From an uncultured Chloroflexia bacterium (GTDB lineage: Bacteria > Chloroflexota > Anaerolineae > CG2-30-64-16), in the NCBI GenBank assembly GCA_963810095.1, contig CAWEMM010000009.1, positions 96,001 to 160,000 on the forward strand: 64,000 nt of DNA, written 5' to 3'. Positions 1 to 35,610 of the stretch are shown here, in pieces; positions within the stretch are counted from its first letter, which is position 1, and every line of letters starts with the position of its first letter. A program made the translations under genes and the position numbers. The notes under the pieces were generated by a model. That model was not told where the DNA came from. It made no database searches and worked only from the letters and a program-made list of their open reading frames with translations.

Positions 1-1780
1 GGTCGAGTTCCTTGGCGGCAGTCGCAGCGCCCACGCCACCCGCAGCTTCCACGCAGCCAACACCGGCGAGGTCAGGCACGCGCTGGAGCACGGCCTTCAG
101 GCCGTCGGCGGCCTTCGTCGAATCGGACTGGTCGTCAATGATCTGCACCAGCTCGATGTCGGGGTAGTTCGCCGCAAATTCGTCCTTGTAGCCCTGGATG
201 CGCTCTTCGAGGTTGCTCTGGCCCACCTTCGTGATCAGTGCAACCTTGCCCTTGCCGCCGATTTGCTCGGCCAGCAGCTTCGCACCCACATGGCCCGCAT
301 TCTTGTTGCCCGTGCCCAGGAAGGTCAGGCGGTTGGAGCCGTAAACCTCGGCGTCCAGCGTGACGATCGGAATACCGGCCTCCGCAGCCTTGTCGATCGA
401 AGGCTTAAGGGCCGGGTCGAAACCGACGACCAGGATGCCCGCGGGCTTCTCGGCGATGGTTTGCTCGAGCGTGTTGATCATCGCGGTCATATCGTACTCG
501 GCAGGACCGACGAACTTCGTCTTGACGCCCAGCTCCTTGCCCGCGAACTCCAGGCCCAGGCGATGGTCGATGAAGTACGGCAGGTTGGTCAGCGCGAGGA
601 CTTCGACGTAGGTCTCATCCGGCGAGGCCGTCGTCATGGGGACCTGGCTGAAGTCGTACGGGTTCTCGGTGTGATAGAACATCTTGGCGTTGTCTTTGTT
701 GATCACCACAACGCCGGTGTCCACCGCCTCAGGCATCGGCAGCACGTTGGCGGCCTTGTTGTCAGAGACGATCGGGACAGGGTTGTTCTGGAGCCCGTCC
801 ATCAGGAGCGTGCCGTAGAAGGTCATCAGCGCGCTCTTCTGCGCGACGGATGCGTCGATGACGCCGTCCTCGATGAACTTCAGCGTGCCGTCGTCGCGGT
901 CCATGGACACGATCTTCAGCTTGCCGTTCAGGCCAAGTTCCTTCGCGGCCGTGGCAGCGCCTACGCCGCCCGCGGCTTCCACGCAGCCCACACCCGCCAG
1001 GTCCGGCTCGCGCTGGAGCACGGCCTTCAGGGCATCCGCGGCCTTGGTGGAATCGCTCTGGTCGTCGATGACCTGGACCAGCTCCACGTCCGGGTAATTC
1101 TGGGCCAGCTCATCCTTGTAGCCCTGGATGCGCTCTTCGAGGTTGCTCTGCCCCACCTTGGTGATGACCGCAACCTTGCCCTTGCCACCGATCAGGTCGG
1201 CTAGCAGCTTGCCGCCCACCCGGCCCGCGTTGTAGTTGCCGGTGCCCAGGAACGTCATGCGCTTGGACCCGTACACCTCCGCATCCAGCGTGACGACCGG
1301 GAAGCCGGCGTCGACCAGCTTGTCGATCGAGGGCTTGAGCGCGGGGTCGAAGCCAATGACGTTGATGCCGGCGGGATTTTCGGCCGCGGCCTGCTCCATC
1401 GTGTTGATCATGGCCGTCATGTCGTACTCGACGGGGCCGACAAACTTGGTCTTGGCGTTCAGGGTCTTGCCTGCGAACTCCAGGCCGACGCGGTGGTCGA
1501 TGAAGTACGGCAGGTTGGTGAGGGCCAGCGCCTCGACGTAGGTCTTCTCGCCCGCAGCCGGAGCGGCCTCGGGGGCGGCCGCAGCCGGTTCCTTGGTGGG
1601 CTCGGCAGCAGCCGGAACCGCAGTGGCCTCAGCCACCGGCGCCTTGGTCGGCTCAGCAGCCGCTGCGGGCGCCTTGGTAGGTTCGGGGGCCGCCGGGGCG
1701 GGGGTGGCCTGTCCGGCGCACCCTACGAGCGTGACCAGGATGGTCACGAGGCACAGAAGTGCCAACAGTCGCCGTTGCAT
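1..1780 (-). CDS. Sugar ABC transporter substrate-binding lipoprotein (RbsB-like) with two tandem binding domains; 3' end runs off window
   Basis: Absent from ORF track; translated by hand from ATG 1780 (RBS AGGAGGAG): MQRRLLALLCLVTILVTLVGC lipobox, AEPTKAP linker repeats, then TYVEALALTNLPYFIDHR...GFDPALKPSIDK repeated with 930-nt offset. Confidence 0.9.
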   Translation of the reverse strand, partial: MQRRLLALLCLVTILVTLVGCAGQATPAPAAPEPTKAPAAAAEPTKAPVAEATAVPAAAEPTKEPAAAAPEAAPAAGEKTYVEALALTNLPYFIDHRVGLEFAGKTLNAKTKFVGPVEYDMTAMINTMEQAAAENPAGINVIGFDPALKPSIDKLVDAGFPVVTLDAEVYGSKRMTFLGTGNYNAGRVGGKLLADLIGGKGKVAVITKVGQSNLEERIQGYKDELAQNYPDVELVQVIDDQSDSTKAADALKAVLQREPDLAGVGCVEAAGGVGAATAAKELGLNGKLKIVSMDRDDGTLKFIEDGVIDASVAQKSALMTFYGTLLMDGLQNNPVPIVSDNKAANVLPMPEAVDTGVVVINKDNAKMFYHTENPYDFSQVPMTTASPDETYVEVLALTNLPYFIDHRLGLEFAGKELGVKTKFVGPAEYDMTAMINTLEQTIAEKPAGILVVGFDPALKPSIDKAAEAGIPIVTLDAEVYGSNRLTFLGTGNKNAGHVGAKLLAEQIGGKGKVALITKVGQSNLEERIQGYKDEFAANYPDIELVQIIDDQSDSTKAADGLKAVLQRVPDLAGVGCVEAAGGVGAATAAKELD

Positions 1781-1851
1781 GTGAGACTCCTCCTAGTGTG
1801 TGGTTGGTTGGCTGGATAAGGGCGGGCTGCCCCGTCCCTTCAGGAAAAGCG

Positions 1852-2850
1852 CTACTTGCTGCTGCCGCGGCGCCGGTTCAGGGCGTCGACGGCAACGGTC
1901 AGGATCAGGACGCCGCCGGTAACGATCGTCTGCCAGTACGGATTAATGCCCAGCAGGTTCAGACCGTTGAGGATGAGCGCCATCAGGATGACGCCGAGCA
2001 GCGAGCCGATGACCGAACCTTCCCCGCCCGACAGGCTGGCGCCGCCGATGACACAGGCGGCAATGACCTGCAATTCGACCGCGTTGCCGGCCGAGACCGA
2101 CGCGGTGCCCATGCGGGCCGTCAGGAGCAGGCCGGTCAGGGCCGCCAGCAGGCCCATCAGGATGTAGTTGAGGATCTTGACGCGGTCGACGTTGATGCCC
2201 GAGAGCCGCGCACTTCGCTCGTTGCCGCCGATGAAGTAACTTTGGCGGAAGAAGCGCCAGCGGCGCAGCAGAATCTCGCCGACGATCACGATCACGATCA
2301 TGATGTAGATGGGGTACTGCAGCGTGAACAGCTTCCCCTGTGCGATCTTGTTGAACGCGTCCGGCAGGTTCGGGATACCGAGGCCGCCGGTCAGCAGGAA
2401 GACGACGCCGCGCGCCACCTGCTGAATGCCGAGCGTCGCGATCAGCGGGTTGACACCCACCTTGGCGATGATCAAGCCATTGACGAGGCCCACGGTCGCG
2501 CCCGCCCCCAGCCCGAGGAGGATTGCCATCGGAGGGGACGCGCCCCACTTCATCATCGCCGTGCCTGCGACCGCGCCGGCCAGGGCCAGCGTCGCGCCGA
2601 TGGACAGGTCGAAGCCACCCGAGATCAGCAGGACAGTCATGCCGACCGCCGCAATCGCGTTGAACGACATGCCCAGGAAGAGGGCGGTCATGTTCGCTTG
2701 GTTGAGGAAGTTGGGCGACGCAATCTTCAGGCCTGCCATTACCACCAGCACGACCAGAAAAATGCTCAGCTCACGTTGCTCGAGCAGGCGCCGCCATATG
2801 CTGGTCCGAGGCGCGGTCGTCGCGCCTTCCTTCCTTGCTGTCATGCTCAT
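1852..2850 (-). CDS. Sugar ABC transporter permease (RbsC family)
   Basis: GGFDLSIG, GGNERSARLSGINV, ELQVIAACVIGGASLSGGEGS; start MSMTARKEG at 2850. Confidence 0.92.
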   Translation of the reverse strand: MSMTARKEGATTAPRTSIWRRLLEQRELSIFLVVLVVMAGLKIASPNFLNQANMTALFLGMSFNAIAAVGMTVLLISGGFDLSIGATLALAGAVAGTAMMKWGASPPMAILLGLGAGATVGLVNGLIIAKVGVNPLIATLGIQQVARGVVFLLTGGLGIPNLPDAFNKIAQGKLFTLQYPIYIMIVIVIVGEILLRRWRFFRQSYFIGGNERSARLSGINVDRVKILNYILMGLLAALTGLLLTARMGTASVSAGNAVELQVIAACVIGGASLSGGEGSVIGSLLGVILMALILNGLNLLGINPYWQTIVTGGVLILTVAVDALNRRRGSSK

Positions 2851-4418
2851 GCTGTCTTCTCCTCCAAGGGCGCGACCGGTTCTGCCTGGTTGACTTGCTT
2901 GGGACCGGTGACGCCGGCGGCCAGGGCCATGACCTGTTCTTCTGTCGCACCGGGACCGGGGATAATGCCTACCAGCCTGCCTTCGCGCATCACTGCGATG
3001 CGATCGCTCACGCGTAGTGCTTCGGGAAGGTCCGATGAGATCACCATGACGGCCTTGCCCTGTGCAGCCAGCTCGCGCAACAGGCGGTGGATCTCTTGCT
3101 TCGTGCCTACGTCGATGCCGCGCGTCGGTTCGTCGACGATCAAAATCCTCGGGTTGCGGGCGAGCCATTCGCCAAGAAATACCTTCTGCTGGTTGCCGCC
3201 CGATAGGTTTCGCAGCTTCTGCTTTACACTGGGTGTGCGCACGTCGAGCTGCGCGACATACTGGCTCGTGAGCTTCGTCAGCATCGGCCACCGAAGCCAG
3301 CCGCCGGGCGAGACCTGTTCCAGGTTGGGCGCGAGGAAGTTTTCCGTGATGCTCTTGTCGAGGAACAGCCCTTCGTTCTTGCGGTCTTCAGACAGGTATG
3401 CCATGCCCGCCTTCATCGCGGCGCTGGGCCGGCGGACGTGCATATCGACCATCTCACCCTTACCGGCCAGCTTGACACTGCCCGTTGCGCCGCTATCCAG
3501 GCCGACGAGGGCCCGCGCGACTTCGGTTCGTCCGGCGCCGACCAGGCCAAAGAAGGTCAAGACCTCGCCTTGATGCAGCGTGAAGCTGATATCTTCAAAG
3601 GCGCCGGGCCGCGAGAAGTTTTCGACCCGCATCGCCTCGGCCCCCGCTTCGACCACGGCCGCCCGATCCGCGTCCAGGTCCAGCTCGCGCCCCACCATCA
3701 TGCTCACGATCTGGTGCTCCGTCAGTTTCGCCGTCGGCTGAACGCCGACGAGCTTGCCGTCGCGCAGCACTGCCGTGCGGTCCGATATGGCGAGGACTTC
3801 TTCGAGGTGGTGGGAAACATATACGATGGCAAGGCCCTGCTCGCGAAGCTGCTTCAGTCGTTCAAAGAGGCGGGCGGCTTCCTGCAAGGTCAGCGAAGAA
3901 GTGGGCTCGTCCAGCACCAGTACCTTTGCGTTGCGGGCCAGCGCCTTCACGATTTCGACCATCTGCTGGTTGCCCATCGAGAGCTTGCCCACCTGCATGT
4001 TCGGGCGGAAGTCTACGCCGAACAGATCGAGCAGCTGCTGGGTCTGGGCGTACATTGAGCGTTGGTCGATGAGCCCCAACGGCCCGAGCGGCTGGCTGTT
4101 AGCGTATACGTTCTCTGCAACGGTGAGGTTCGGCACAAGGCTGAGTTCCTGGAAGACCACGCTGATGCCGGCTTGCTCGGCTTCCTGCGTGCTGCCGAAA
4201 CTGACCGGCTGGTCGCCCAAGTAGAGCTGCCCTTCATCCGATTGGTAAGCGCCTGCGAGGATGTGAATGAGTGTGGATTTGCCCGCGCCGTTTTCGCCGA
4301 CCAGGGCCAGGATCTCGCCGGCCCGGGCATCCAGCGTGACGTTGGACAGCGCCTGGACGCCGGGGAAGGCCTTGGAGATACCTTCGACGCGTAGGAGAGA
4401 TGAAGTTGATGAATCCAT
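2847..4418 (-). CDS. Sugar ABC transporter ATP-binding protein (RbsA family, two NBDs)
   Basis: GENGAGKST, LSMGNQQ, LSGGNQQK, DEPT twice; likely start MDSSTSS at 4418. Confidence 0.93.
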   Translation of the reverse strand: MDSSTSSLLRVEGISKAFPGVQALSNVTLDARAGEILALVGENGAGKSTLIHILAGAYQSDEGQLYLGDQPVSFGSTQEAEQAGISVVFQELSLVPNLTVAENVYANSQPLGPLGLIDQRSMYAQTQQLLDLFGVDFRPNMQVGKLSMGNQQMVEIVKALARNAKVLVLDEPTSSLTLQEAARLFERLKQLREQGLAIVYVSHHLEEVLAISDRTAVLRDGKLVGVQPTAKLTEHQIVSMMVGRELDLDADRAAVVEAGAEAMRVENFSRPGAFEDISFTLHQGEVLTFFGLVGAGRTEVARALVGLDSGATGSVKLAGKGEMVDMHVRRPSAAMKAGMAYLSEDRKNEGLFLDKSITENFLAPNLEQVSPGGWLRWPMLTKLTSQYVAQLDVRTPSVKQKLRNLSGGNQQKVFLGEWLARNPRILIVDEPTRGIDVGTKQEIHRLLRELAAQGKAVMVISSDLPEALRVSDRIAVMREGRLVGIIPGPGATEEQVMALAAGVTGPKQVNQAEPVAPLEEKTA

Positions 4419-4467
4419 GCCTTCCGCCTTTATAACCGTCATCGGCGCGGAATCGGCCAATCCGGCG

Positions 4468-4860
4468 TTATTCGCCTGCCGGGTCGAACCCCGCGTCTCT
4501 GAGGGCAGCGACAAAGTCGTCGTAGTGCAGATCGGGTTTTTGCAGGTAAGCCGCGCAATCAGGCGCGAGGGCCGCGGCATCCGACCGGGTCAGCCACGAG
4601 CATGAGATCACGGGTACGCCCGCCGCGCCGTTCTGCGCCTTGAGCACTTGCGCAGCCTGCCAGCCGCGGTGCTCGCCGGGCAACTCGACGTCCAGGATGA
4701 TCAGATCGGGATGGCATTCGGCGGCCAGGGCCTCCAGTTCTTCGCCCACCTGTGCCCGCACGGCGGAGAGGCCGCACCCTTCGCAAAACCGCGTGAGGAG
4801 CCGGGCCAGAAAGGTGTCAGACTCGCCGATGAGGCAGATGGGCGGCGTGGACGGTGCCAT
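4468..4860 (-). CDS. Single-domain response regulator receiver protein
   Basis: PDLIILDVELPG, YLQKP motifs. Confidence 0.75.
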   Translation of the reverse strand: MAPSTPPICLIGESDTFLARLLTRFCEGCGLSAVRAQVGEELEALAAECHPDLIILDVELPGEHRGWQAAQVLKAQNGAAGVPVISCSWLTRSDAAALAPDCAAYLQKPDLHYDDFVAALRDAGFDPAGE

Positions 4861-4881
4861 ACTCCCATTTCACCACGCCGG

Positions 4882-7800
4882 TCACCCGCTGTCTCGCACC
4901 ATTGGAACCGCTCTCTCGGAGAATTGGAACCTGCGCTTCCGGTACTCGCTCGGTGAGAGCCCGGTCTCCTTCTGAAAGACCCGGCCGAAGTAGCTGCTGT
5001 CTGAGAAGCCGCAGGCCAGTGCGATTTCGGTCACGCTGAGCTGACCGCGCTCGAGGAGGGCTGCAGCCTGCTGGACGCGGTAGCGGTTGAGGTAGGCGAC
5101 CGGCGAGAGCCCGGTCTCCTGGCCGAAGCAGCGGGTGAGGTAGCGCTCGCTGACCGCCAGGCGGCCGGCCAGTTCCTCCCGCGAGATCGACTCGGCGTAG
5201 TGCTCGTGGATGTAGGCCATGGCCATGCGCGCGATCCGCTGCGCCTCACTGCCCAGGCGCTTGCCCCGCGGCCCAGCGCATCTGCAATCTGGCCGAGCAC
5301 CTCGTCCTGGGTGAACACGCCCTTGTTGAGCACGGCCGCGACGCCCTTCTGCAGCCTTTCCATCTCCTGCCGGCCGAGCACCTGCGCGGTGAGGACGATG
5401 ACCGGCACGTCGCGGAGTCCGGGCATGCCCCGCATGGCCTCGAGCACGCCGAATCCGTCGAGTTCGGGCATCATCAGGTCGAGGAGCACGAGGTCGGGCA
5501 CGGCCTGCTCCATCGCGGCCAGCGCGGCCCGGCCGTCGGCCGCAGTGGTCACGTGCGCAGCCGGCAGCGCGGCCGTGGCCATGCGCGCATGCAGGTGGCG
5601 CACAGCCGGATCGTCGTCGACGACGAGGATTTCGTGGCGGGCGCCGTCCGCGCGCGTCATGCCCTGCCGCGCCAGCGCCGCGGCCAGCAGTTCGCCGCCC
5701 AAAGGCTTGGCGACATAATCGAGGTTCAGCACGGCCCCGCAGTCGCCCTCACACAGCGAATAGAATAGCACCGGGATGTCGCTGGTGGCCGGGTTCAGCT
5801 TGAGCACATGGACGAGGTCCCAGGCGTTCTCGGCCGCCGCCCCGTAGTCCAGTACAATCGCACCCGGCGGGCTCGCCGCGACCCCGGCCAGCCAATCTCC
5901 GCCCGGCTCGGCCGGCAGCGCCACCACTTTGAAGCCCTTGGCGGCGAGGAACGCGTGCAACTGCTGCGAGCCGCCCGTGTCCTCGGCCAGGAGCAGGACG
6001 GCATCGCTCCGGTCGGGCAGTTGGGCCGGCGACGCGGCTTCCTGGGCCAGCACCGGGAGCGTGAAATAGAAGGTCGAGCCCGCGCCATCCGTCCCGGTCG
6101 ACAGCACGCCGATGCGGCCGCCATGCAGCTCGACCAGCCGCTTGCTGATCGCCAGCCCCAGCCCCATGCCGCCGAAGCCGCGGCGAGACACCCGGTCCGA
6201 CTGGCGGAATTCGTCGAAAATCAGCTCCTGCTCGCCCGCGGCGATGCCCATGCCCGTGTCGCTGACCGCGACCATGACTTCCTGGCGGCCGGTCTCCACC
6301 CAAAGCGAGACGCAGCCCTTGCTCGTGAACTTCACGGCGTTGCCGAGGAGGTTCAGCACGACCTGCTGCAGCCGCGTCCGGTCGCCCCACACCAGGGGCA
6401 GCCGCTCGCCGAAGTCAACCCGCCACGCCAGCCCGCGCTCGCGTGCCATCTGCTCGCCCAGCACGGCCACGGACCCGAGCACCTGCCCCAGTCGCACCGG
6501 CTCGCAGACCAGGCGGAGTTCGCCGGCCTGGCTGCGGGCGAGGTCGAGCACGTCGCTGATCAGGTGAGACAGGTGGCGGGCGCTCATGTGGATCGATTCG
6601 AGGTCGTGCTGGAAGGACTCGGGCAGCCCGGTTAGCGGCTCGCGCTGTACCATCTCGATCGTTCCTGCAATCAGGCTCAGCGGCGTGCGCAGCTCGTGGC
6701 TGACGGTGGACAGGAACTTGCTTTTGAGCAAGTTGGCTTCCTCGGCCCGCCGCCATGCTTCCCGCACCTCCTCACGCAGGAAAAGCCCTTCCAACGCCGC
6801 GCTGACTTGCTCGCGGAGCGTTTCGCCCAGGGCCAGCGCGCGGGCATCGGCCTGCAGGAGCATGTAGCCCAGCTGCTTTTCGCCGAAGCAGAGCGGCAGG
6901 ACGACCAGGTCGGGGGGCCGGCGGCCCGCGAGGCGCGGCGGCAGCAGATCCCGGCTGGCGAAGAGCGGCTCGGACGCAAGGTCGATCCGGCCGGCCGCAT
7001 CGAATGCCAGCACCAGTTGGCCCGCGCCGGTGGGCTGCTCCGCATCGTGGTAGAGCACCAGGTAGCATGCATCGACGCCGAAGGGCGGCAGTTCTGCGGC
7101 GATGAGGTCGTAGAGCGCTTGCCGGTTGGCTGCGCCCTGGATGTGTTGGCTGAAATCGCCCAGGCGATGTGTGTCTTCGTCAGCGTGGAAACGCTGGTAA
7201 CTCCGCGCCTGCGCCGCGGTCTCGCCGATCAGGACGCGCGCCTGCTGCCACAGGTCTTCGGCTACGGAGCGCGCGGGCTCGACCAGGCGGGGCAGCATCT
7301 GGCGCCGCATCAACGAAAGCGCTTCGTGCCATTGCCGCACGTCCCGGCTCCCATACTGGCCCAGGGCGGCGGCCTGAAGCGTGCCGTTGAGCCCCGCCAG
7401 GAACCGCTCGGCATCCCGGCCTGCCAGGACGGCCCGGAACTCGTCGACCAGGGCGGCCATCGCCGCTTCGGGAAGACCGGTCACGCCTGCCATGGCCGCG
7501 GGGAGGTTGAGTGTGCGGGCCGCCGCGGGCGCGGTGCCTCGGGCGGCGGCTGAGGTCACCGCGGGCGACAGGCAGCCGCACGAGCGGCGAATGACCAGGT
7601 CGAGCGGGAGCGTCGCGACCTCGGCCGGGGGCCGGCCCGAAAACAGGTCGAGCAGCGCGGCGACCGCGGCCCGCCCCATCTCGACGACGGGCTGGCTGAC
7701 CGTCGTCAGGGCAGGCAGGATCGCTCGGCCCTCTTCGTCGTCGTTGAAGCCGGTCACCGCGACGTCGTCGGGGATGCGGACCCCGCGTGCGCGCAGCGCC

Positions 7801-8477
7801 TCGATCGCGCCACAAGCCATGTCGTCACCCACCGAGAGCAGCGCGTCGAAGTCGATGCCCGCAACCAGCCCGCGCTCGTCGAGCAGTTCGGCAATCTTTT
7901 GGGGCCCGTCCAGCCGCACCCAGTTGGTGCGGGACGAGACGAGGGCCGGCTCGAACGGGATCGCGTTATCGGCGAGGACGTCGCAGTACGCGCGGAAGCG
8001 GAGCTCTTCTTCTTCGGCGCCCTCCGGCCCCCGCAGAAATGCGATCTTGCGCCGGCCGTGTTCGCGGAGGAGATGCTCGGCTGCCAGGCGCATCCCCTGG
8101 TAGTTGTCGACAAGGATGCCGGGGATACCCGAGAAGGCACGGCCGACGGTCACCACGGGCACGGAGGTGAAACGGCGGCAGAATGCCTCCATTTGCCCAG
8201 GCCGCAACTCCCAGTCGAGCGCGCTGGCCCAAATGATCAGGCCGTCCACGTTGCGCGGCCCGGCCAGGTCGTACAGCACGTTCGCCGGGCTCTCCCGCGA
8301 ACTCGTGGGCGCGAGCACGCCCCCGTCGAAACAGACAAAGTCTGCCCCGGCCGCCAGCACCGCAGCCCGCACGCTTAAGAGCGACGCGCGATGAAAGCCC
8401 CGGCCGAGTTGGGACTCGAACAGGCCGATGACGGGGCGTGATTTCGACGGTTGAGAGGCGGACACGAGGATACGCAA
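4882..8477 (-). CDS. Hybrid sensor: LacI-type sugar-binding domain + histidine kinase + receiver(s) + AraC HTH (frameshift near 5270)
   Basis: N-term PDDVAVTGFND/PALTTVSQP; SHELRTPL H-box; NLLGNAVKFT; GMGLGLAIS; PDLVLLDLMMP; ORF 4882..5226 carries AraC motif EIALACGFSDSSYFGRVFQKETGLSPSEYR in another frame. Confidence 0.85.
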
Positions 8478-8639
8478 CTCCGCATGGATCCGATGGTGCA
8501 GCCCGATGATACCTTATGTCACTAAAAGAAGGAAGCTGCGAGACCGGTGGCACCCCGGAGACCCGCCAGGTTGCCCCACTTCACCAGGGGCGCAACCTGA
8601 CAGGTCTGTCCGCAAGATGCGAGCGCGCTTGCAGCGGTC

Positions 8640-9818
8640 TCACCCAGGCAGCCGGCTCCGCAGGTAGTCGTACGCCGCCCGACGCCCCGACCGCAGATCA
8701 CGATTGATCGCGTCGTACTTCCCGCCCTTCAGGAGCCCGACGACGGGCGAAAACTGCGAACAGATGACGATGCCGCGGCGGTCGAGCGAAGCGAGCATCT
8801 CGTCGAAGTACGCGGCGTACTCGACCGGCGTGAAGTCGCACACGAACAGCACGACTTTGTCCTGCAGCTTCTGCTGCAGCTCGCAGACTGAGGGGATGTT
8901 GTACAGGTTGTAGATGTTCAGCGCCTTGAGCCCCTTGGTCGCGAGGAAGTTGTCGGCGTGGCGGGTGGCGTTGCCACAGTAGTGGATGCAGCCGCCGCCA
9001 AACGCTTCCAGGATGCGCGAGTTGTACGGTACGACGAACTCGCGATACGTCCGGGTAGACATGAGCACCGCGTCATCGTCGGAGAACCAGACGCCCGCGT
9101 GCTTTCCGGTGTAGACCTGCTGGTCGCCGATGCATTCCGTCAGCGGCTCGCCGGTGACCTCCTTCTGCTTCTTCACCCACATGATGAGCGTCTCGGTGAC
9201 TTTATCCATCAGCTCGTGCATGACGTTCGGGTGGTCGTACATCAGGTAGATGAGCTTGTCATAACCCATCAGCTGATTGGCGGTGGTCAGCGGGCCCTGG
9301 AAATCTGTGATTCCGACCGGGAGGAAGCTGTTGGCCTTCATGTACCCCAGAGTCTTCAGCACGTCGGGCATGAGGCCTGCGGTTTCCGGGTCGGGCATCT
9401 CGAGCCGGTGCACGTCCTCGACGGTCTGGACGGGGTAGTAACGGGGATTGGCGGCCGGGTCCATCTTGGGCTGGAACTCGATCTGGCAGCCCAGCGCCGA
9501 GGCGGCCACGACCGTGCCGAACCAGGGCATCAGGTAGGGCACGAAGTCGTCGTCGATTTCCTTGACCTGGTCGTAATACGTGCGCTCCTGGTAGGCCGTC
9601 ATGACCGCGGGGTCGGTCACGTAGTCGTCGGGCAGGGTCTCCGGATCGAGGCCGAAGATCCAGTACAACGCGCTGTTTACCATGAAGGGGGGCGCCTTGA
9701 CGTCGCGGAACGCGAAGACGTCGTCGGTTTTCGCGGCGACCTTGGCCAGCCGGCTATCGAACCGGCGGCGAAAGTCGGCACGCTCGGCTTGGGACAAGGG
9801 TTCAGTCGTCCACGCCAT
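8640..9818 (-). CDS. Uroporphyrinogen decarboxylase/cobalamin methyltransferase-family protein (divergent subtype)
   Basis: TDFQGPLTTANQLMG, SDDDAVLMS, IHYCGN; start MAWTTE at 9818 with GGAGG RBS. Confidence 0.75.
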   Translation of the reverse strand: MAWTTEPLSQAERADFRRRFDSRLAKVAAKTDDVFAFRDVKAPPFMVNSALYWIFGLDPETLPDDYVTDPAVMTAYQERTYYDQVKEIDDDFVPYLMPWFGTVVAASALGCQIEFQPKMDPAANPRYYPVQTVEDVHRLEMPDPETAGLMPDVLKTLGYMKANSFLPVGITDFQGPLTTANQLMGYDKLIYLMYDHPNVMHELMDKVTETLIMWVKKQKEVTGEPLTECIGDQQVYTGKHAGVWFSDDDAVLMSTRTYREFVVPYNSRILEAFGGGCIHYCGNATRHADNFLATKGLKALNIYNLYNIPSVCELQQKLQDKVVLFVCDFTPVEYAAYFDEMLASLDRRGIVICSQFSPVVGLLKGGKYDAINRDLRSGRRAAYDYLRSRLPG

Positions 9819-9837
9819 GAGGGACCTCCGGTTTGGG

Positions 9838-10867
9838 TCAGTATTGCCCGTACTTGCGCGCCGATTCGACGAGCGCGTGGATGTTTTCGGCAGGTGTTTC
9901 GGAAGGCAGCGCACAGCCCGGCCCGAGAATGAAGCCGCTGCCCGGCGCCATGATCGCAAGCGCCTCCCGACACGCGTCCTCGACCTCCGCCGGCGTCTCC
10001 GACGACCAGGGTCGACGTGTTGATCGGTCCCAGGAAGCAGGTTTGGCCCCTGCCGGCAGCCTTTGCTTTCACCAGGTCGGTCTTGTGGTCGATCTCCAGG
10101 ACCTGCGCGCCGGTCGCAATGAAGTCATTCAGGATGGGAACCGTGTTGCCGCAGATGTGGTTGTGCAGGATGATCCCGTGCGCCTTGAGCTCGGCGGCCA
10201 TCCGCTGCTCTTGGGGCTGTGCGTAGCGGCGGTAGTGCCTGGGCGACATCACGTCGGGCCCGGCGACCGGCTCGCCGATGGAGGTTGACCGGGCGCCGCT
10301 TTCGATCAGCGCATACGCATAGCGGGTCGCCACCTCGCGCGCATAATCGAGCAGGCAGTCGACGAGCTGCGCCTTTTCCCCCAGGGCGATCTCCAGCATC
10401 AGCGGCTCCATGCCGAAGAGCTGGCTGGCAAGGTCCATGGGCCCCTGGTCCGCCCGTCCGCAGATCCACACCTCGTCGCCGATCTCCTTCGCCAGGATGC
10501 GGGTCGCCTTGATGATCTCGCACATGGGGAAGGCCGTGTACGGATCGGGCACGGTGAGCGTGTCGACGTCCTCCAAGCGGGTGAGCACGGGGATATGCGC
10601 CGCGGGCGCGGCGTCGTCGCGATAGATCACCTGGACGCCGCATGCCTGTGCGCTGCACGCGGTGCCGTTTTCCAGCAGGATCATGTCGTGGCCGAACTCG
10701 CGCCACGCCCTAAGCATCGCCTCGGCGAGCAACTCGCCGTCCTGGAACACCTCGGCCATGGAGATGCCCATTGCCGCGGCCGCGGGCTGGAAGTTGTGCA
10801 GGTCGACCGGGACCCGGTCCGGCGTTCGCAGGTCAATGGCTGCTTGCACGCGCTCGATTGAGTTCAT
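9838..10867 (-). CDS. MtaA/CmuA-like corrinoid methyltransferase (UroD family), frameshift near 10010
   Basis: PDRVPV, HNHICGN, and in the shifted frame GFILGPGCALPSETPAENI; H-x-C...C Zn motif. Confidence 0.8.
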
Positions 10868-10897
10868 AAACCGTCTCCTCGTCGAGCCGTCTGCTCG

Positions 10898-11554
10898 CTA
10901 GGCGGCGCCGACCAATCCCCTGGCCAGACGCACTGCAGAGGACGCGTCCGGGCTGTAGCCGTCGGCCCCAATCTGCCTGGCAAAGCTGTCGGTCACGGGG
11001 GCTCCGCCGATCATCACTTTGACCTGGTCCCGGAGCCCGGCTTCCTGCAATGCCTTGACCGTGGCGGTCATCGAGGGCATGGTGGTGGTGAGCAGGGCAG
11101 ACATGCCGATGACGAGTGGGCGGCCGCCCGCTTGGGGCTTGTGCTCCTGCACGGCTTTTACGAACTTCTCGGGGGTGACGTCCGTGCCCAGATCGACCAC
11201 TTCGAACCCGGCGCCCTCCAGCATCATCGCAACGAGATTCTTGCCGATGTCGTGCAGGTCGCCCTTCACGGTGCCTACCACGACCTTGCCCACCGACACC
11301 GAGCCCCCTTCCGCGAGCGCGGGCTTCAGCAGGGCGAGGCCGGCCTGCATCGCACGGGCGGAAACCAGCATTTCCGGAACAAAGTACTCGTTCTCCTCGA
11401 ACAGCCGCCCAACCTCACCCATTGCGGCGATCAGCCCATCTTTGAGAATGGTCTCCGCAGGGATGCCCGCGGCCATGGCGTCACGCACGCCCGCTTGCGT
11501 CCCCTTGGCGTCCCCTTCAAGCACGGCATGAAAAACGGCCTCAAGTGGTTCCAT
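10898..11554 (-). CDS. Corrinoid (B12-binding) protein, MttC/MtbC type
   Basis: GDLHDIGKNLV B12-binding motif, FVPEMLVSA, VMIGGAP. Confidence 0.93.
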   Translation of the reverse strand: MEPLEAVFHAVLEGDAKGTQAGVRDAMAAGIPAETILKDGLIAAMGEVGRLFEENEYFVPEMLVSARAMQAGLALLKPALAEGGSVSVGKVVVGTVKGDLHDIGKNLVAMMLEGAGFEVVDLGTDVTPEKFVKAVQEHKPQAGGRPLVIGMSALLTTTMPSMTATVKALQEAGLRDQVKVMIGGAPVTDSFARQIGADGYSPDASSAVRLARGLVGAA

Positions 11555-12634
11555 TGTCTTGCCTCCTATGAGATTTTGGCGTAGTCGATCGTCGCGCACC
11601 GGCGCCTGCTAGGAAGCCGGTTGCACGGTGGGGTGGGGCTGTGGAAGCCCGCACCACCAGGCTGGTGGGAATTTCAACATGGCGGATCGGCTCGGTCCGA
11701 TCGAGCAGGTCGATCAGCATGCGCGTCGCAGTGGCGGCGATGTCGTAGATGGGCTGGCACACGGTTGTCAGCGGGGGCCAGATTTGACCTGCGAGGGCAA
11801 CATCGTCGAACCCCGCCACCGATAGCTCGCCCGGGATGGTCAACCCGGCTTCATGTGCCCGGGCACACACGCCTGCCGCCATTTCGTCGTTGTTGCAGAA
11901 GACGGCGGTCGGCATGGGGTTCATCCGGAAGAACGAGCCGGCGGCTTCGCGGCCGCTTTCGAAGTGATCGTCGCCGTGGCGCACCAAGGTCAGGTCGAAG
12001 GCGACCCCCGCGGCGGCCAACGCGTCACGATAGCCTGCCAGCCGGTCATGCGCAGCCCGCTGCTCGAGTGGCCCGACAACGAAGCCAATGCGTCTGTGGC
12101 CGAGTCCAAGCAAGTGCTCCGTCATCTCACGCGCGCCACAGCCGGTCGGTTGCGGCAACGTACGGGGCAGTGCTCTCGCGCTCGCAAGGCGTCAGACGTA
12201 CAAAGGGGATGCCCATGCCGGCGAGTGCTTCGAACAGTGCCGTCGCGTTGTCGACCGGGGGCGTGCTGATGAAGCCGTCGACCTGGCGTTGGGAAGCGAG
12301 TTGGATGATTTCCAACGCGTCGGCGGCCCGAGCAGCATCGCACGGATGCAGCAGCGTGCTGTAGCCCGCAGCACGCGCAGCCTCCAGCACGCCTCGCTGT
12401 ACGTCTTGAGTATAGAGCCAGCTTGCATTGTGAAAGAGAAGGCCGATTGTGAAGGCGTGTCCCTTGGCGAGCCGTTTCGCATGGAAATTGGTAACGAACC
12501 CTAACTGCTCAATGGCAGCTAGCACTTTTGCGCGCGTCTCTTCGCGCACGTACGGCTCGTCGTTGAGGACAGCGCGAGACCGTCTTAATTGAGAGACCCG
12601 AGGCGAGAGCAACGTCGCGGATGGTGGCGGACAT
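11541..12634 (-). CDS. LacI-family transcriptional regulator (two apparent frameshifts near 12575 and 12140)
   Basis: MSATIRDVA...VLNDEPYVREETRAKV HTH; LSVAGFDD, PPLTTVCQP; pieces in ORFs 12127..12612 and 11541..12158; exact 3' end uncertain. Confidence 0.85.
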
Positions 12635-12748
12635 GGCCTCTTTCACTCTCACGGGGTTGCCGGCAGAGCACCGGACACCGGCGTCTGGCTCAGCGATCCC
12701 CGATGGGGAATCCCTTCTCCATCAGGCATAAGGCCGGCCGGGGCGGTC

Positions 12749-12796
12749 TGATACCGTTGTCATGCGCAGGTTATCACACTCTGACAGCGCTGTCAA
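12749..12796 (-). promoter_or_regulatory. Sigma70 promoter with two LacI-type operators
   Basis: Minus strand TTGACA (12791-12796)-17 nt-TAACCT (12768-12773) with TGn extension; perfect palindrome TGACAGCGCTGTCA 12782-12795 and variant TGATACCGTTGTCA 12749-12762. Confidence 0.8.
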
Positions 12797-15751: not shown

Positions 15752-16177
15752 TTACTCATCGAGCCACTTGGCGATCTCCCAGATAGTTCCGGCCGGGTCA
15801 ATGAAGCTGGCCGTCCGGATGCCCCAGGGCCGGTCCATCGGACCGTTGAGCAGTTCGACGCCCCGGGTTCGGAGTTCTGTGCACATCGCATCGACATCAT
15901 CCACGGTGAGCGTGAAGACAAACCGCGCGCCGGCGTCGCGCACCGCCACTCGCGCCGGCTCGATGAGCTCGTTCGCCTGTGTGATTCTCAGCAGGTTGAT
16001 CAACGTGTTCCCGAACTTGAACACGGCCGAATCACCCTCTTCGAAGTGGACGGGCAGTCCGAATACCTTCTGGTAGAATTGCTTCGTGGTTTCCAGGTCC
16101 TCCACGAACAGGGTTACAGCCGCAATGCCGGCCGGCCAGGTGCCGGCCCCCCCAGCGGGCAGGTTCGTCTGAGTCAT
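15752..16177 (-). CDS. VOC/glyoxalase family protein
   Basis: VTLFVEDL...FYQKVFGL; DRPWGIRTASFIDPAGTIWEI. Confidence 0.85.
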   Translation of the reverse strand: MTQTNLPAGGAGTWPAGIAAVTLFVEDLETTKQFYQKVFGLPVHFEEGDSAVFKFGNTLINLLRITQANELIEPARVAVRDAGARFVFTLTVDDVDAMCTELRTRGVELLNGPMDRPWGIRTASFIDPAGTIWEIAKWLDE

Positions 16178-16461
16178 GGTCACGTTCTCCTTGTCCATCC
16201 CTCGCCGGGAGTTCATGCGCGTATAAGCCGGGTTTTGCCCCGCTGCGAAGTCGGAAACGGGAGTGTCTGCAGCATTGCAAGCACGTCTGGCGAACCGCGT
16301 TGCCATGACCGCTGCGCCGCCACTCGCGACCTCGTCCACGATGCGGCCTGCTTGGGGCCGGGACGCATCGTGGACAAGGACGGTGATTCTTTCAGTAGAA
16401 AGGGCTTTCGAGAATAAGGGCAACGTGGCTGCCACGAAAATCCGAGCCCGCCGCGCAGCCC

Positions 16462-16797
16462 CTAATCGTCCGCTATCTGAACCCGGGCCGCCGCCTTTGG
16501 CGTCCGAGGTTTTGCCGCGGGCCGGCGGGTGGTGGGCCGCGCGGTCGGATCGAGTTCCGGCCGTTCCGCGGGCAACTGCATGTTGTTCCAGATGCGCGCC
16601 AAGATCACGATGTCGGCGGTGAGGTACTCGCCGTCGTCGTAGCGAATCGTCATCTTGGGCGGGGCAACTTGCATGACTTCGTAGTTCCCTTTCCGGTTCG
16701 CATAGCTCTCACCTACGTGGAAAGGATGCGTTCCAGGCGCTTCGTATGCCTGGCGCGAGCGTTCGGTCAGCGATTGGCTGTTCTGATGCGTATTCAT
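16462..16797 (-). CDS. Hypothetical small protein
   Basis: AGGAG RBS; non-random composition (PFHVGESYANRKGNYEV); directly downstream of cold-shock gene. Confidence 0.6.
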   Translation of the reverse strand: MNTHQNSQSLTERSRQAYEAPGTHPFHVGESYANRKGNYEVMQVAPPKMTIRYDDGEYLTADIVILARIWNNMQLPAERPELDPTARPTTRRPAAKPRTPKAAARVQIADD

Positions 16798-16839
16798 CCG
16801 CTGTGTCTCCTCTGCGCTTGTCGACCCACCCTGGGTGGC

Positions 16840-17055
16840 CTAGATCGGGGTGACGTTAGCGGCGCTCGGCCCCTTGGCTCCCTCCTCGATGTCAAACTCG
16901 ACGCGCTGGCCTTCTTCGAGGGTCCGGAACCCTGAGGTCTGAATGGCCGACTGGTGCACGAACACGTCAGCGCCGCCGTCGGCCCGAGCGATGAACCCGT
17001 ACCCCTTGTCGGCACTAAACCACTTGACCGTACCCATGTGACGTTCCGATTCCAT
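16840..17055 (-). CDS. cspA: Cold-shock protein
   Basis: [34 protein letters not shown]. Confidence 0.93.
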
Positions 17056-17263
17056 GTTGCGACTTCCTTTCATCCGTTAAGACAAAGCGCGGGCGCATGC
17101 GGCCCGCGTCCCCATCCCTCTGCCAACCGGCAACAAAACAGCCCAGGCTATGCTTGCCCGGGCTGTCGATGGTCTTTGTGTCAGGACGGCATCTTGCGAT
17201 AAGTTTACGCCGGGAAAGGCGTTAAGGTCGGTAGTCCAAGCGACAGAGCGGGTCCGCCATTCC

Positions 17264-18586
17264 CTAAAACAGCAGCAAATCGGGCGCTTCGAGGGCCTGG
17301 ACGAGCTCTGACAGGAACCTGGCGGCCACAATCCCGTCGATCACACGATGATCGGCAGAGAGCGTGAGCGACAGCATCGGGCGCACCTCGACACGGTCCT
17401 GCGCGTCCACCACAACCGGGCGGCGCACGATACTGCCCACGGCAAGGATCGCGCTTTCGGGCGGGTTGATCACCGCCCGAAACTGCGGGATGCCCAGCAT
17501 GCCCAGGTTCGAGATGGTGAAGGTGCCGCCCTGCACGTCGTCCAGTTTCAGCGCGTTGCGCCGTGCCCGGTCCGCCATCGCGCCGAGCCGCACGTTAATC
17601 TCGTTGATACCGAGCTGGTCCGCGTCTTTGAGCACCGGCACGACCAAACCCTGCGGTGCGGCTGCTGCAACGCCGATATTGATGTTCTTCCACAGTGAGA
17701 TCGAGTCGCCGGAGAATGACGAATTGAGATAGGGGTGGCGACGCAGCGCCCACCCGACGATCTTGATGATCACCGCCGTCATCGTAATCTTCGGCTGCTG
17801 CAGTTTCTCCGCATGCACGTTCAGACGCTTTCGGGCAGCTTCGGCTTCAGTCATATCTACTTCGACCGTCAGCGCGATGTGCGGCGACTCCTGGAAGCTC
17901 TGCTGCATCCGCTGCGCAATCGTCCGCCGAATGCCGCTGAGGGGGATGACCTCTGCTTCCCGGCCCTTCGTGGGAGGCGGGGCGACAGGCGCGGGCGCCC
18001 GTTCCGGTTCCACCGGCAGCTCCGGCACGGCCAGGGCCTGCGCTGCCGTCTCTACATCGGCGGCCACGACCCGCCCGCGCGGGCCCGACCCGGCCACGGC
18101 TTCCAGGTTGACGCCGCTTTCGCGCGCCACCCGGCGGGCTGATGGCGTTGCGGGAACCGTCACGCGCCCCTCCCCGCCATGCTCGGCGAGATACTTCTCG
18201 ACATCCTCGCGTGTGATCTTGTTGCCCGCTGCCGAGACCTTTGAAAGGTCGACGCCCTCTTCTTTCGCGATCCGGGCGGCGATAGGTGTGGCTGCCGGCA
18301 GGACTAGGGCGGTGACGGCGGATGGCTGCACGGGCGCGGGTGTCTCGCCCTCCTTCATGATCTGGGCGATCACGGTCGTCACCGGGACCACATCGCCGTC
18401 CTTGTAGCGGATGCCGGTGAGGATGCCGGTCGCAGGGGCGGGCACATCGATGGCGACCTTGTCAGTCTCGACGACCAACACGGTTTCCTCGAACTTGACG
18501 AAATCGCCTTCTTTTTTGGACCACGACACGATCGTCGCCTGTTCCTGGTCCATGTCGAACTTGGGCATGATGAACGGGACTGGCAT
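17264..18586 (-). CDS. Dihydrolipoamide acyltransferase (E2)
   Basis: ETDKV lipoyl site, two E3-binding-like repeats, GGTFTISNLG, ADHRVIDG. Confidence 0.93.
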   Translation of the reverse strand: MPVPFIMPKFDMDQEQATIVSWSKKEGDFVKFEETVLVVETDKVAIDVPAPATGILTGIRYKDGDVVPVTTVIAQIMKEGETPAPVQPSAVTALVLPAATPIAARIAKEEGVDLSKVSAAGNKITREDVEKYLAEHGGEGRVTVPATPSARRVARESGVNLEAVAGSGPRGRVVAADVETAAQALAVPELPVEPERAPAPVAPPPTKGREAEVIPLSGIRRTIAQRMQQSFQESPHIALTVEVDMTEAEAARKRLNVHAEKLQQPKITMTAVIIKIVGWALRRHPYLNSSFSGDSISLWKNINIGVAAAAPQGLVVPVLKDADQLGINEINVRLGAMADRARRNALKLDDVQGGTFTISNLGMLGIPQFRAVINPPESAILAVGSIVRRPVVVDAQDRVEVRPMLSLTLSADHRVIDGIVAARFLSELVQALEAPDLLLF

Positions 18587-18587
18587 G

Positions 18588-19574
18588 CTAGACCGTGCCT
18601 CCTACGAGGGCGCGGATCTCCCGTTCGATATCTTCTTCCTGCGGAATGGCGATGCGCTCGAGGCCGCGGTTGTAGGGGATGGGGATATCCTTGCCACCCA
18701 GGCGCCGCACCGGCGCATCGACATAATCAAAAACGGGGCTTCCGACGACGGAAGCAATGACTTCGCCGGCCCAGCCGCCGGTCTGGCAGGCCTCGTGGAC
18801 CACCAGCAAGCGGCCCGTGCGCCGCACCGAGTCGAGGATGGTCGTGGTGTCGAGCGGCAGCATGGTGCGGGGATCGACCACCTCCACCTCGATGCCTTCT
18901 TTGGCCAGCCGAGCGGCGACGTTGAGCGTCTTCATCACCATCACGTTGTTTGCCACCACGGTGATGTCGCGGCCCGGGCGCTTGATTTCGGCAACGCCGA
19001 TAGGGACGGTGTAATCCTCTTCGGGCACCTCGCCCTTGGTCTTGTAAAGCGCCTTGTGTTCCACGAAGCAGACCGGGTTCGGGTTACGGATGGCCGAGAG
19101 CAGCAGCCCCTTGGCGTCGTAGGGGGTCGATGGCGCGATGACGATCAGGCCCGGCACGTGCATCAGGATGCTCTCCAGCGATTGCGAGTGCTGGGAGGCG
19201 GCGCCGCTGCCCGAGCCGGACGGCATGCGGACAACCATAGGCACGGTGGCCCGGCCGCCGAACATGAAGTGCATCTTCGCGGCCTGGTTTGCGATTTGAT
19301 CCAATGCCAGGAAGACGAAGTCCATGAACATGATCTCGGCCACGGGCCGCATGCCGACGACTGCTGCGCCGACCGCCGTCGCGACGATCGTCGCCTCGGA
19401 GATCGGCGTCTCGCGGACGCGCTCGGGACCGAACTCGTCAAGCATGCCGTGCGTCACGCCGAACGCGCCGCCGTAGCGGCCGATGTCCTCGCCCAGCAGG
19501 AAGACGCGTTCGTCGCGCTTCATCTCCTGCCACAATGCCTGCCGGATGGCTTCGAGGTAGGTGATCTCAGGCAT
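18588..19574 (-). CDS. TPP-dependent dehydrogenase E1 beta (AcoB/PdhB-like)
   Basis: LGEDIG, ETPISE, SQHSQS, DAKGLL. Confidence 0.93.
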
Positions 19575-20632
19575 AAACATACTCCATCAGGGTGGCACGG
19601 GTCCGGTTCGGGCGACGCGTCCGCGAACTCCACCGCGTTCACGATGACCTGCTCGGCCTCCGCGTCGATCTTCTGCGCGCTGTCTTCGTCCAGGATTTCC
19701 GCCTGCAGCAGGTGCTTGGTGAAGCGCATGATGGGGTCGCGGTTCAGCTTCCAGTCCTCGATCTCATCCTTGGCGCGGTACAGGTTCCGGTCGCTTTTCG
19801 AGTGGCCGAAGTAGCGGTAGGTGATGGTTTCGACGAAATAGGGCCCGTTACCCGAGCGGACATGGTCGGCGGCTTTCTTCATCGCCCCGTATACCTCGAG
19901 CACGTCGTTGCCGTCCACGCATGCCCACGGGATGCCGTACGCATCGGCTCGCTGCGCGATGGGCAGCTTCGCGCTCGCCCGGGCCACATCCATGGACATG
20001 CCATACTTGTTGTTCTCACAAACGTAGAGCACCGGCAGGTTCCACAGCGCCACCATGTTCATCGCTTCGTGGAACACACCTTCATTCGAGGCGCCGTCGC
20101 CGAAGATGCAGATGCAAATCGCGTCCCGCTTCAGCATCTGGAGCGCCAGCCCGACGCCGACGGCCTGCGGGATGCCGCCGCCGACGATGCCGTTGGCGCC
20201 GAGGTTGTTGGATTGAAAATCGGCAATGTGCATGGAGCCGCCGCGGCCGTGGTTGTAGCCGGTCTCCTTGCCCAGGAACTCGGCCATCATCAGGTTGATG
20301 TCGGCGCCCTTGGCAATGAAATGGCCGTGCCCGCGGTGGTGGTTGATCAGGTAATCGTCGGGGCGCACGGCGAGCGCAATGCCCGCTGCCACCGCCTCTT
20401 GCCCGGCCGACAGGTGCATCGTTCCGTGTACCTTGCCCGCCGCATACAGCTTGTCGGCCATGTATTCAAAGTGGCGGATGGTGCACATCGTGCGGTAGAG
20501 CCCGACGAGGCGTTCGTCGGCCAACTCCAGTTCGGCCGCGCGCTCTTCGAAATGCTCGCGTGATCCCGATATCACGCCAGGGCCGGCTGCCTCCAGGTTC
20601 TGCAGCGCATCTACGATCATAGCTCGCCTCAC
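19567..20632 (-). CDS. TPP-dependent dehydrogenase E1 alpha (AcoA/PdhA-like); small C-terminal frameshift
   Basis: [26 protein letters not shown]...[11 protein letters not shown]; natural end ATLMEYVYA* at 19567 in another frame. Confidence 0.9.
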
Positions 20633-22758: not shown

Positions 22759-22774
22759 CGTGGTGCTCCTAAGG

Positions 22775-22872: not shown

Positions 22873-22878
22873 GATCGT

Positions 22879-35606: not shown

Positions 35607-35610
35607 AATG

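Follow-up and report, generated by a model that had tools for sequence, protein, structure and literature searches.

Why should genes of a corrinoid-dependent methyl-transfer system stand in one run with a sugar importer and two sugar sensors? The question is raised by a stretch of 64,000 nucleotides from a Chloroflexota genome (G000:C9:96001-160000), the whole of which was analysed and is referred to here as the window. Its positions 1..12634 hold, on the minus strand and with short gaps, genes for a corrinoid protein (CP), URO-D-fold proteins, sugar sensors and a CUT2-type ABC importer. The gene run points to an undescribed, oxygen-free removal of methyl groups from imported sugars. On balance, and by a modest preponderance, we regard the locus as an accessory catabolic module in which corrinoid-dependent methyl transfer is joined to the uptake and sensing of a sugar-like compound. 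The best guess for the substrate, judged from gene context, is a methylated monosaccharide or cyclitol.

The central protein in this argument is UroD2, a divergent member of the URO-D fold. Its gene is a neighbour of the CP gene in the window, is co-located with a CP gene in 15 of 48 UroD2 loci (a further CP, in L014, is frameshifted) and is fused to one in relatives. The natural fusion is the strongest evidence for the corrinoid link of UroD2. In the 635-amino-acid (aa) protein P0134, an N-terminal part that is 44% identical to UroD2 over 330 aa is followed by a C-terminal part that is 51% identical to the window CP across all 218 aa. The combination PF01208 + PF02607 + PF02310 (URO-D, B12-binding_2 and B12-binding) occurs in 119 of the 120 P0134 homologues listed, most full-length homologues being ~630-650 aa long, and a second fusion cluster has a 634-aa member found on six contigs. 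A search of 301 genomes of the phylum with P0134 as the query found none at E<=1e-120. Because relatives are fused to a CP module and UroD2 shares loci with the CP, UroD2 is very probably a corrinoid-dependent methyltransferase.

Organization of the gene run

The genes of the run are listed below from 5' to 3' on the minus strand, with domain calls from Pfam.

11541..12634, minus strand: LacI-family regulator (LacI helix-turn-helix and Peripla_BP_3)
10898..11554, minus strand: corrinoid (B12) carrier protein, CP, 218 aa (B12-binding_2 and B12-binding)
9838..10867, minus strand: MtaA-like URO-D-fold methyltransferase (URO-D, 147 bits)
8640..9818, minus strand: UroD2, divergent URO-D-fold protein (URO-D, 76 bits)
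4882..8477, minus strand: hybrid sensor (LacI-type binding domain, HisKA, HATPase, REC, REC, AraC helix-turn-helix)
4468..4860, minus strand: single-domain response regulator (Response_reg; REC only)
2847..4442, minus strand: CUT2-type sugar ABC ATPase with two ABC_tran domains
1852..2850, minus strand: CUT2-type permease (BPD_transp_2)
2..1780, minus strand: tandem Peripla_BP_4 lipoprotein binding protein, cut by the window edge (full gene G000:C9:95738-97780)
G000:C9:94499-95650: UroD3, third URO-D gene, directly after the binding protein beyond the left edge of the window

A preliminary description of this DNA had named a LacI regulator, a corrinoid protein, two URO-D proteins, a hybrid kinase, a REC protein and an importer, all of which are indeed present on the minus strand. 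The motifs it quoted are real as well (HICGN and GPGC in the MtaA-like protein; DFQGP, SDDD and HYCGN in UroD2). The run extends past position 1 with the remainder of the tandem binding protein, followed by UroD3. Terminator-like sites number three, against ~8 expected by chance, and no inverted repeats are present in three intergenic stretches.

The CP has the build of a small corrinoid protein, with a B12-binding_2 cap, a B12-binding Rossmann domain and the DxHxxG, SxL and GG motifs; the last appear as GDLHDIGK, SALLTTT and GGAP and are invariant in 12 aligned orthologues. Its closest kin are corrinoid proteins of methyltransferase systems, MtgC and MtbC among them, with scores under the cut-offs of the best NCBIfam models (MtgC, 219.6 bits against 370; pyl_corrinoid TIGR02370, 192.2 against 215.3).

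UroD2 among the URO-D-fold proteins

UroD2 belongs to a tight family, with 542 homologues at E<=1e-5, of which the 120 listed are at least 71% identical; they come mostly from metagenome-assembled genomes (MAGs) of Anaerolineae, Caldilineales and other Chloroflexota. A comparison with 1.84 billion representative proteins gave 86 matching clusters at E<=1e-30, and the protein-cluster search added only clusters named URO-D. Residues H279 and C281 are invariant in the 13 orthologues aligned. The AlphaFold2 (AF2) model is a UroD-type barrel (pLDDT 79, pTM 0.84), whose best Foldseek match is MtaA (4ay8_A), just ahead of HemE, with ~16% identity to MtaA in the structural alignment. A search of PDB sequences with UroD2 returned only HemE. 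The mtaA_cmuA model TIGR01463 gives 37.9 bits (cut-off 235.4), and the hemE model TIGR01464 has no match to UroD2 at E<=1e-5. All three URO-D proteins of the run score higher on the MtaA/CmuA models than on hemE (NCBIfam).

In eight loci (L015, L017, L019, L028, L029, L030, L033 and L040) a CobW/COG0523 GTPase gene lies just downstream of UroD2. We take the CobW/COG0523 family to be metallochaperones, and such a neighbour fits a metal-dependent UroD2. A tblastn search of the host genome with the CobW of L030 found no homologue at E<=1e-5.

Conservation of the linkage with sugar uptake and sensing

The 48 UroD2 loci come from a scan of species-representative genomes, their contents being taken from gene calls and tblastn. 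Besides the CP, they hold the following.

MtaA-like orthologue: 17 of 48 loci
UroD3: 17 of 48 loci
the same binding protein (62-86% identical): 16 of 48 loci
CUT2 permease: 20 of 48 loci
CP together with a transporter: 13 of 48 loci

Orthologues of the lone REC protein occur in five of the 48. The linkage of corrinoid and URO-D genes with sugar importer and sensors, proposed in the preliminary description, is thus kept in other genomes; since gene order varies between the loci, the association is more than the passing on of a single block. Of 20 metagenome loci with a length of 7.5 kb or more, 15 contained the family of UroD2 relatives fused to a CP module. Among these 15, a CUT2 ATPase gene adjoins in eight and UroD3-type genes in nine, and other neighbours encode Peripla_BP_4 proteins, SDRs, a lactonase-like protein, FAA hydrolase, 2-hydroxyacid dehydrogenase, GH36 alpha-galactosidase-type enzymes, KDPG aldolase with a PfkB kinase, and lyxose isomerase. 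An MFS sugar transporter gene adjoins UroD2 in a Pirellulales locus. A protein of ~320 aa follows UroD2-family genes in many loci (e.g., L083:9898-10875, L090:7973-8938, L094:9083-10156 and L061:12723-13670) and is also present in the C16 cluster of the host; it is distantly related to DUF4432 proteins beside UroD2 in L046-L048 and L059, and has no match in Pfam, NCBIfam or PDB.

The importer of the window has the composition of a CUT2 system, with a double-ABC ATPase, a BPD_transp_2 permease and a Peripla_BP_4 protein, and reaches no substrate-specific equivalog cut-off. The best NCBIfam models are AraG (524 bits), RbsA and XylG for the ATPase and AraH and RbsC for the permease. The binding protein has 681 aa and consists of two Peripla_BP_4 halves that are 80% identical over 293 aa; its tandem orthologues in relatives are 647-755 aa long, and the 'sensor protein' PDB 2x7x is among its matches. 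A second tandem binding protein, of 706 aa, is encoded in another URO-D sugar locus of the host (L068:12737-14857). A match of the window protein to the rhizopine-binding-protein model was set aside, its score of 145 bits against a cut-off of 420 being too weak to name a ligand.

The hybrid sensor looks cytoplasmic, as it carries a LacI-type sugar-binding domain and no obvious membrane segment. Its domain order is presumably that of the Bacteroides hybrid two-component systems (sensor, HisKA, HATPase, REC, AraC helix-turn-helix).

The same neighbourhoods bear on a different assignment of the imported compound. The corrinoid system might be accompanied by the import of something other than a methyl-sugar, such as a methylated polyol or a methoxylated aromatic bound in a glycoside, or importer and methyl-transfer genes might belong to separate pathways that share only their regulation. 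Such a view would account for a window locus in which Pfam reveals no enzyme to catabolize the demethylated sugar, for UroD2 neighbours that vary by lineage (GH3, GH78, GH36, MocA-type oxidoreductases and enolase-family proteins), and for a binding protein whose ligand no named model fixes. We nevertheless consider it rather unlikely: the same binding protein stays with UroD2 in a third of the loci despite the changes in gene order, two sugar-type sensors lie within the gene run, and MAGs labelled as Spirochaetota, Clostridia and Actinomycetota carry unrelated CUT2 systems beside more distant UroD2 relatives (L050, L054, L055 and L060). Of the candidate substrates, a methylated monosaccharide or cyclitol is the most economical.

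Activases and C1 genes of the host

The preliminary description had recommended a search of the genome for ramA and acsE. The search was positive, yielding three RACo genes and a pterin-binding gene near acetyl-CoA synthase; the latter, CdhC, lies with RACo and pterin-binding genes within 15 kb (G000:C6:918651-933192). Pterin-binding domains occur at three places in the host genome. One of the three RACo genes is inside a CP/URO-D sugar locus (C9:520-540k). Another region, L064 (G000:C6:56001-72000), carries a split methionine-synthase-like (MetH-like) set made up of homocysteine S-methyltransferase, a corrinoid protein, RACo with a 2Fe-2S domain and a pterin-binding protein.

Two counts on which a corrinoid role could have failed came out consistent with it. 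Genomes with UroD2 and no local CP encode RACo in five of five cases and small B12-binding_2 (CP-type) proteins in five of five, often side by side, against RACo in only one of 14 control genomes. Among 101 sampled genomes of the phylum, which include related and therefore not independent genomes and one (G078) flagged as unpublished, RACo is present in all 11 with at least five URO-D matches and in 25 of the 90 others.

UroD3 and the URO-D paralogues of the host

The host genome holds 44 URO-D matches, mostly in sugar loci, and encodes the true hemE separately (351 bits to PF01208). Profiles sort the paralogues into an MtaA-type, a UroD2-type and a large UroD3-type group; a quick paralogue tree, incomplete and with one wrong-frame row, was used only to see these three groups. 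The first His is kept in 35 of 37 aligned paralogue open reading frames (ORFs), and the triads are His-Cys-His in 12, His-Asp-His in six, His-Cys-Cys in four and other His-Cys-x or His-Asp-x in 13. The same kind of module recurs elsewhere in the genome: sugar genes stand together with CP genes and URO-D paralogues at no fewer than four further loci.

C16: UroD2-like gene (45% identical), accompanied by sensor, binding-protein and ABC genes
C6:1214-1230k: regulators of the DeoR type that include a binding domain, three URO-D genes, FGGY kinase, isomerase-like barrel, CUT2 system
C12:436-450k: five xylose-isomerase-like barrels, MocA-type oxidoreductase, zinc dehydrogenase, in a setting like that of inositol catabolism
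C9:520-540k: RACo, GH127-like gene, MFS transporter, DUF1638, class II aldolase

In UroD3 itself, an invariant His is followed two residues later by Cys or Asp, and another invariant His occupies the position of the MtaA Cys (H271 and C/D273, HSCG in its own copy; H358 in FNTVHN). It is probably a substrate:Co(I) methyltransferase, to judge from these residues and its neighbours. An orphan CP, very similar to that of the window (339 bits to the CP profile), is encoded at L070:7987-8730 (G000:C11:184990-185739) next to FtsH, SRP54 and a chaperonin-like gene. It could serve as a shared methyl carrier in trans for URO-D loci that have no CP of their own.

It might be argued that UroD3 and most host paralogues are not methyltransferases at all and act as cofactor-free or metal-dependent sugar-modifying enzymes, similar to decarboxylases or isomerases, so that only UroD2 and the MtaA-like protein use the CP. 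In line with this, 23 of 29 URO-D regions have no CP inside 8 kb (tblastn), and the motif around the conserved His of UroD3 resembles what we take to be the motif of HemE itself. The NCBIfam scores of UroD3 run the other way (TIGR01463, 48.5 bits, cut-off 235.4; TIGR01464 hemE, 26.2 bits, cut-off 303), and UroD3 retains the His-x-Cys/Asp position of MtaA. UroD3-type genes, moreover, accompany UroD2 in 17 of 48 loci and its fused form in nine of 15, the orphan CP among housekeeping genes could supply the loci that have none, and RACo is found in every sampled genome with an expanded URO-D family. The paralogues are unlikely to be unrelated to methyl transfer on this evidence.

The preferred reading, in which UroD2 and probably UroD3 would demethylate imported sugars, might be widened to the whole set. 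UroD2, UroD3 and the several dozen host URO-D paralogues would then form a large uncharacterized radiation of corrinoid-dependent O-demethylases for aliphatic methyl ethers. Their substrates would be O-methyl sugars and O-methyl inositols derived from glycans of plants, algae and microbes; every member would have an importer and a sensor to itself, and a few corrinoid carriers and activases would be shared. Such a radiation would do without oxygen what the P450 sugar demethylases do with it. This wider proposal is tentative, and we give it somewhat less than an even chance.

The MtaA-like protein

Among the three URO-D proteins, the MtaA-like protein is the only one with the full His-x-Cys...Cys zinc motif, which is kept in its orthologues (H237 and C239 invariant, C318 nearly so). 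A search of PDB sequences returned MtaA and HemE only, the M. mazei MtaA (4ay7) matching with E 3.8e-20. Model TIGR01463 (mtaA_cmuA) gives 120.1 bits on the first 290 aa, below the cut-off of 235.4, and TIGR01464 (hemE) 43.8 bits (cut-off 303). MtaA-type (His-Cys-Cys) paralogues also occur in sugar loci of the host genome without a CP, one of them beside rhamnose isomerase and the second tandem binding protein. Corrinoid systems comprise a methyltransferase that acts on the substrate (MT1) and one that unloads the carrier (MT2), and the MtaA-like enzyme may be either an MT2 directed toward a thiol or a further MT1.

His-Cys-Cys marks the S- and Se-methyltransferases of the superfamily, O-methyltransferases replacing Cys by carboxylates or other residues, in the part of the work of Kountz and Balskus available to us (PMC10418091). 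The kept H237, C239 and C318 could on these grounds belong to a demethylase of an S-methylated (or Se-methylated) substrate, e.g., 5-methylthioribose taken up by a ribose-type importer, and the ATPase and permease are in fact nearest to models of pentose (arabinose, ribose and xylose) transporters. This is distinctly improbable, as UroD2, the most conserved protein and the one fused to the CP, and UroD3 do not have His-Cys-Cys, UroD3 relatives being His-Cys-His or His-Asp-His. Nor do the Pfam-checked loci contain methionine-salvage or sulfur genes; their neighbours encode sugar dehydrogenases, kinases, isomerases and glycoside hydrolases. O-demethylation of a sugar-like substrate remains the preferred reading.

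Frame breaks

The genes of the run contain four frame breaks: one in the MtaA-like gene (~9997-10005), two in the LacI gene (~12138 and ~12571) and one in the kinase/AraC gene (5262-5265). As a result, LacI is read in three frames in the window, and the MtaA-like and kinase/AraC genes in two each. Contigs from four public short-read runs with closely related sequence have exactly one base fewer at 10005, 12138 and 12571, the base at 10005 being missing in the contigs of two runs, X1 and X3; the break at 5262-5265 was not resolved by short-read contigs. The corresponding genes are intact in relatives, where the MtaA-like protein has 342-348 aa and LacI 338-341 aa in most, and the hybrid sensor is a single ORF of 1205-1225 aa (L014, L018 and L021). 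Since the single extra bases are missing from the related contigs, the MtaA-like and LacI genes look intact in nature. The assembly (6.13 Mb in 16 contigs, ~65% G+C) seems to carry many single-base indel errors, and the breaks, that at 5262-5265 excepted, are read as base-calling errors or strain-level noise rather than decay. Base-calling errors fit a completeness of only 88.5% and a housekeeping hemE that is likewise split in two frames (G000:C11:71450-72468). That four breaks in ~12 kb, which leave the LacI, MtaA-like and kinase/AraC genes out of frame, mark a decaying remnant of pseudogenes is very improbable and was rejected, given that the extra bases are absent from related short-read contigs, that hemE is split too in an assembly of this completeness, and that every one of these genes is intact in relatives.

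Other features of the window

A glyoxalase-family gene and a 2-oxoacid dehydrogenase E1-alpha/E1-beta/E2 set (15752-20632) adjoin the module, and the same set adjoins fused UroD2-CP genes in the metagenome loci L079, L083 and L084. A second sugar locus (21607-29248, minus strand) encodes a Peripla_BP_4 binding protein and an ABC ATPase, each frame-split, together with two permeases, an FGGY kinase and a UroD3-type URO-D protein (His-Asp-His); a corrinoid protein is absent from it. A sugar-catabolic run follows at 33982-40069 (minus strand) with an FGGY kinase, iron alcohol dehydrogenase, SMP-30/gluconolactonase-like protein, GH43 and class II aldolase. A DDE transposase is found in two overlapping ORFs at 43835-45002 (DUF772 and DDE_Tnp_1). 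Rfam has no match at the gathering level across the whole window, B12 riboswitches included, and a tRNA search of the window returned none.

Proposed pathway and its weak points

In the proposed pathway, the CUT2 importer with its unusual tandem binding protein would take up a methylated monosaccharide or cyclitol, and the LacI repressor and the cytoplasmic hybrid kinase/AraC sensor would turn the genes on. UroD2, and probably UroD3, would hold the substrate at His-x-Cys (in some UroD3 relatives, His-x-Asp), which the analogy to MtaA-type enzymes makes a likely metal site, and hand the methyl group of the substrate over to Co(I) on the corrinoid protein. The MtaA-like enzyme (His-Cys-Cys) may then move the methyl group from methyl-Co(III) to a thiol acceptor, or may itself be a further substrate-specific methyltransferase. 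Oxidized Co(II) would be reactivated by one of the three RACo activases encoded elsewhere in the genome, and the methyl group may reach the folate/acetyl-CoA-synthase branch of the host. We infer the substrate class, the direction of transfer, the identity of MT1 and MT2, the acceptor and metal binding from genes and their neighbours.

Several observations weigh against this pathway. As the preliminary description had stated for the window, the locus has neither a RamA/RACo-type activase nor a pterin-binding MT2 (Pfam). The best models for the binding protein, those of rhizopine-, rhamnose- and allose-binding proteins, are all far below their cut-offs (NCBIfam). The candidate third metal ligand of UroD2, C353, is unsettled, the position being Cys in 11 of 13 orthologues, Asp in two, and Ala in the fused relative. 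In the Acidobacteriota-type MAG loci L031, L035, L036, L037, L038 and L052, Pfam finds no CP or importer near UroD2. The neighbours there include GH3 and GH78 genes, an FGGY kinase, an enolase-family protein, and a MocA-type oxidoreductase that is accompanied by a 3-keto-disaccharide hydrolase. The host has three haem-copper oxidases, and Co(I) chemistry is oxygen-sensitive. UroD2 is patchy, being present in two of 40 relatives; this distribution fits an accessory, transferable module. A CP lies within 8 kb of only six of the 29 host URO-D regions (tblastn), to which family searches add two (C12:442k and C9:529k). Because few regions are near a CP and MtaA-type genes occur in sugar loci without one, corrinoid dependence is uncertain for the family as a whole, as is the division into MT1 and MT2.

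Methylated sugars block ordinary sugar catabolism. If the proposal is true, aliphatic sugar ethers would join methanol, methylamines, aryl ethers and halomethanes as substrates of corrinoid methyltransferase chemistry, and a very large gene set annotated as 'uroporphyrinogen decarboxylase' in sugar loci would gain a function. Glycan turnover in soils, sediments and sludge would be tied to C1 metabolism and to the demand for B12. The wider radiation, if real, would be widely distributed among the sugar degraders of the Chloroflexota, Acidobacteriota, Planctomycetota and Spirochaetota, and methyl groups from it could enter folate or acetyl-CoA metabolism. For testing, the locus is compact: it has a single carrier and a single binding protein, three methyltransferase candidates and two sensors. 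A literature search returned no corrinoid enzyme for aliphatic methyl ethers in print, and the literature searched (supplements not covered) contained no paper on corrinoid-dependent sugar demethylation.

Comparison with known systems

The nearest counterparts are the corrinoid O-demethylase and dehalogenase systems, the MT1s of which are UroD-superfamily members in the sections of the reports that we could consult (PMC13222342, PMC8630106). The preliminary description had set UroD-fold MT1s apart from 'MtvB types', and this premise was wrong: in the accessible text of two papers, MtvB, OdmB, VdmB, MtoB and CdmB are themselves members of the superfamily (PMC13222342, PMC10418091), so that a UroD-fold MT1 is the known rule for O-demethylases and not an oddity. 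That earlier interpretation is supported in part: the linkage is conserved and the module recurs in the genome, and a role of UroD2 as a substrate:corrinoid methyltransferase is very likely, whereas the methylated sugar or cyclitol remains a putative substrate and UroD2 a candidate MT1. OdmB and VdmB of Acetobacterium dehalogenans, MtvABC of Moorella, MtoABCD of Methermicoccus and CdmBCA likewise place a UroD-superfamily methyltransferase beside a small MtaC/MtbC/MtgC-type corrinoid protein, according to the available excerpts (PMC8630106, PMC13222342); the likeness to OdmB, VdmB, MtvB and MtoB is one of description and not of direct sequence comparison. The logic by which a substrate methyl group passes to Co(I) and on to an acceptor would be shared, as far as those excerpts describe it (PMC8630106, PMC13222342). 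The excerpts also indicate an ATP-dependent RACo-type activase, the candidates for which in the present case are encoded in trans. O-demethylase systems, however, adjoin transporters for aromatic compounds, whereas the present module lies in a run of sugar importer and sensor genes; it has three URO-D paralogues instead of a pterin-binding (MtrH/MeTr-type) MT2, its presumed substrate is an aliphatic methyl ether, and its host also respires oxygen.

The MtaA-like protein is clearly similar in sequence to MtaA, MtbA and MtsA (PDB 4ay7) and shares their fold and their HxCG...C zinc motif. CmuA resembles the fused UroD2 relatives in build, a methyltransferase domain being joined to a corrinoid domain. 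All scores of the present proteins, in contrast, are under the curated cut-offs of these families. To our knowledge, coenzyme M, the usual acceptor of MtaA-type enzymes, is not expected in this bacterial phylum.

Type 1 mlp clusters also combine several MtaA-like paralogues with a corrinoid protein and have no folate methyltransferase in the cluster, in the portion of the paper open to us (PMC10418091). The same portion describes clusters with their own Ram/RACE activase, His-Cys-Cys in nearly all Mlps, obligately anaerobic hosts and sulfur or selenium genes. The present locus differs from them and falls outside the definition of an mlp cluster, with its candidate activases in trans, two of three paralogues without His-Cys-Cys, and sugar genes as neighbours.

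The cytochrome P450 sugar O-demethylases of marine bacteria provide an oxygen-dependent route to the same end, in the accessible part of the report (PMC6292453). They belong to an unrelated protein family, and what they would share with the module described here is the proposed task, the removal of a methyl group from a sugar before its catabolism.

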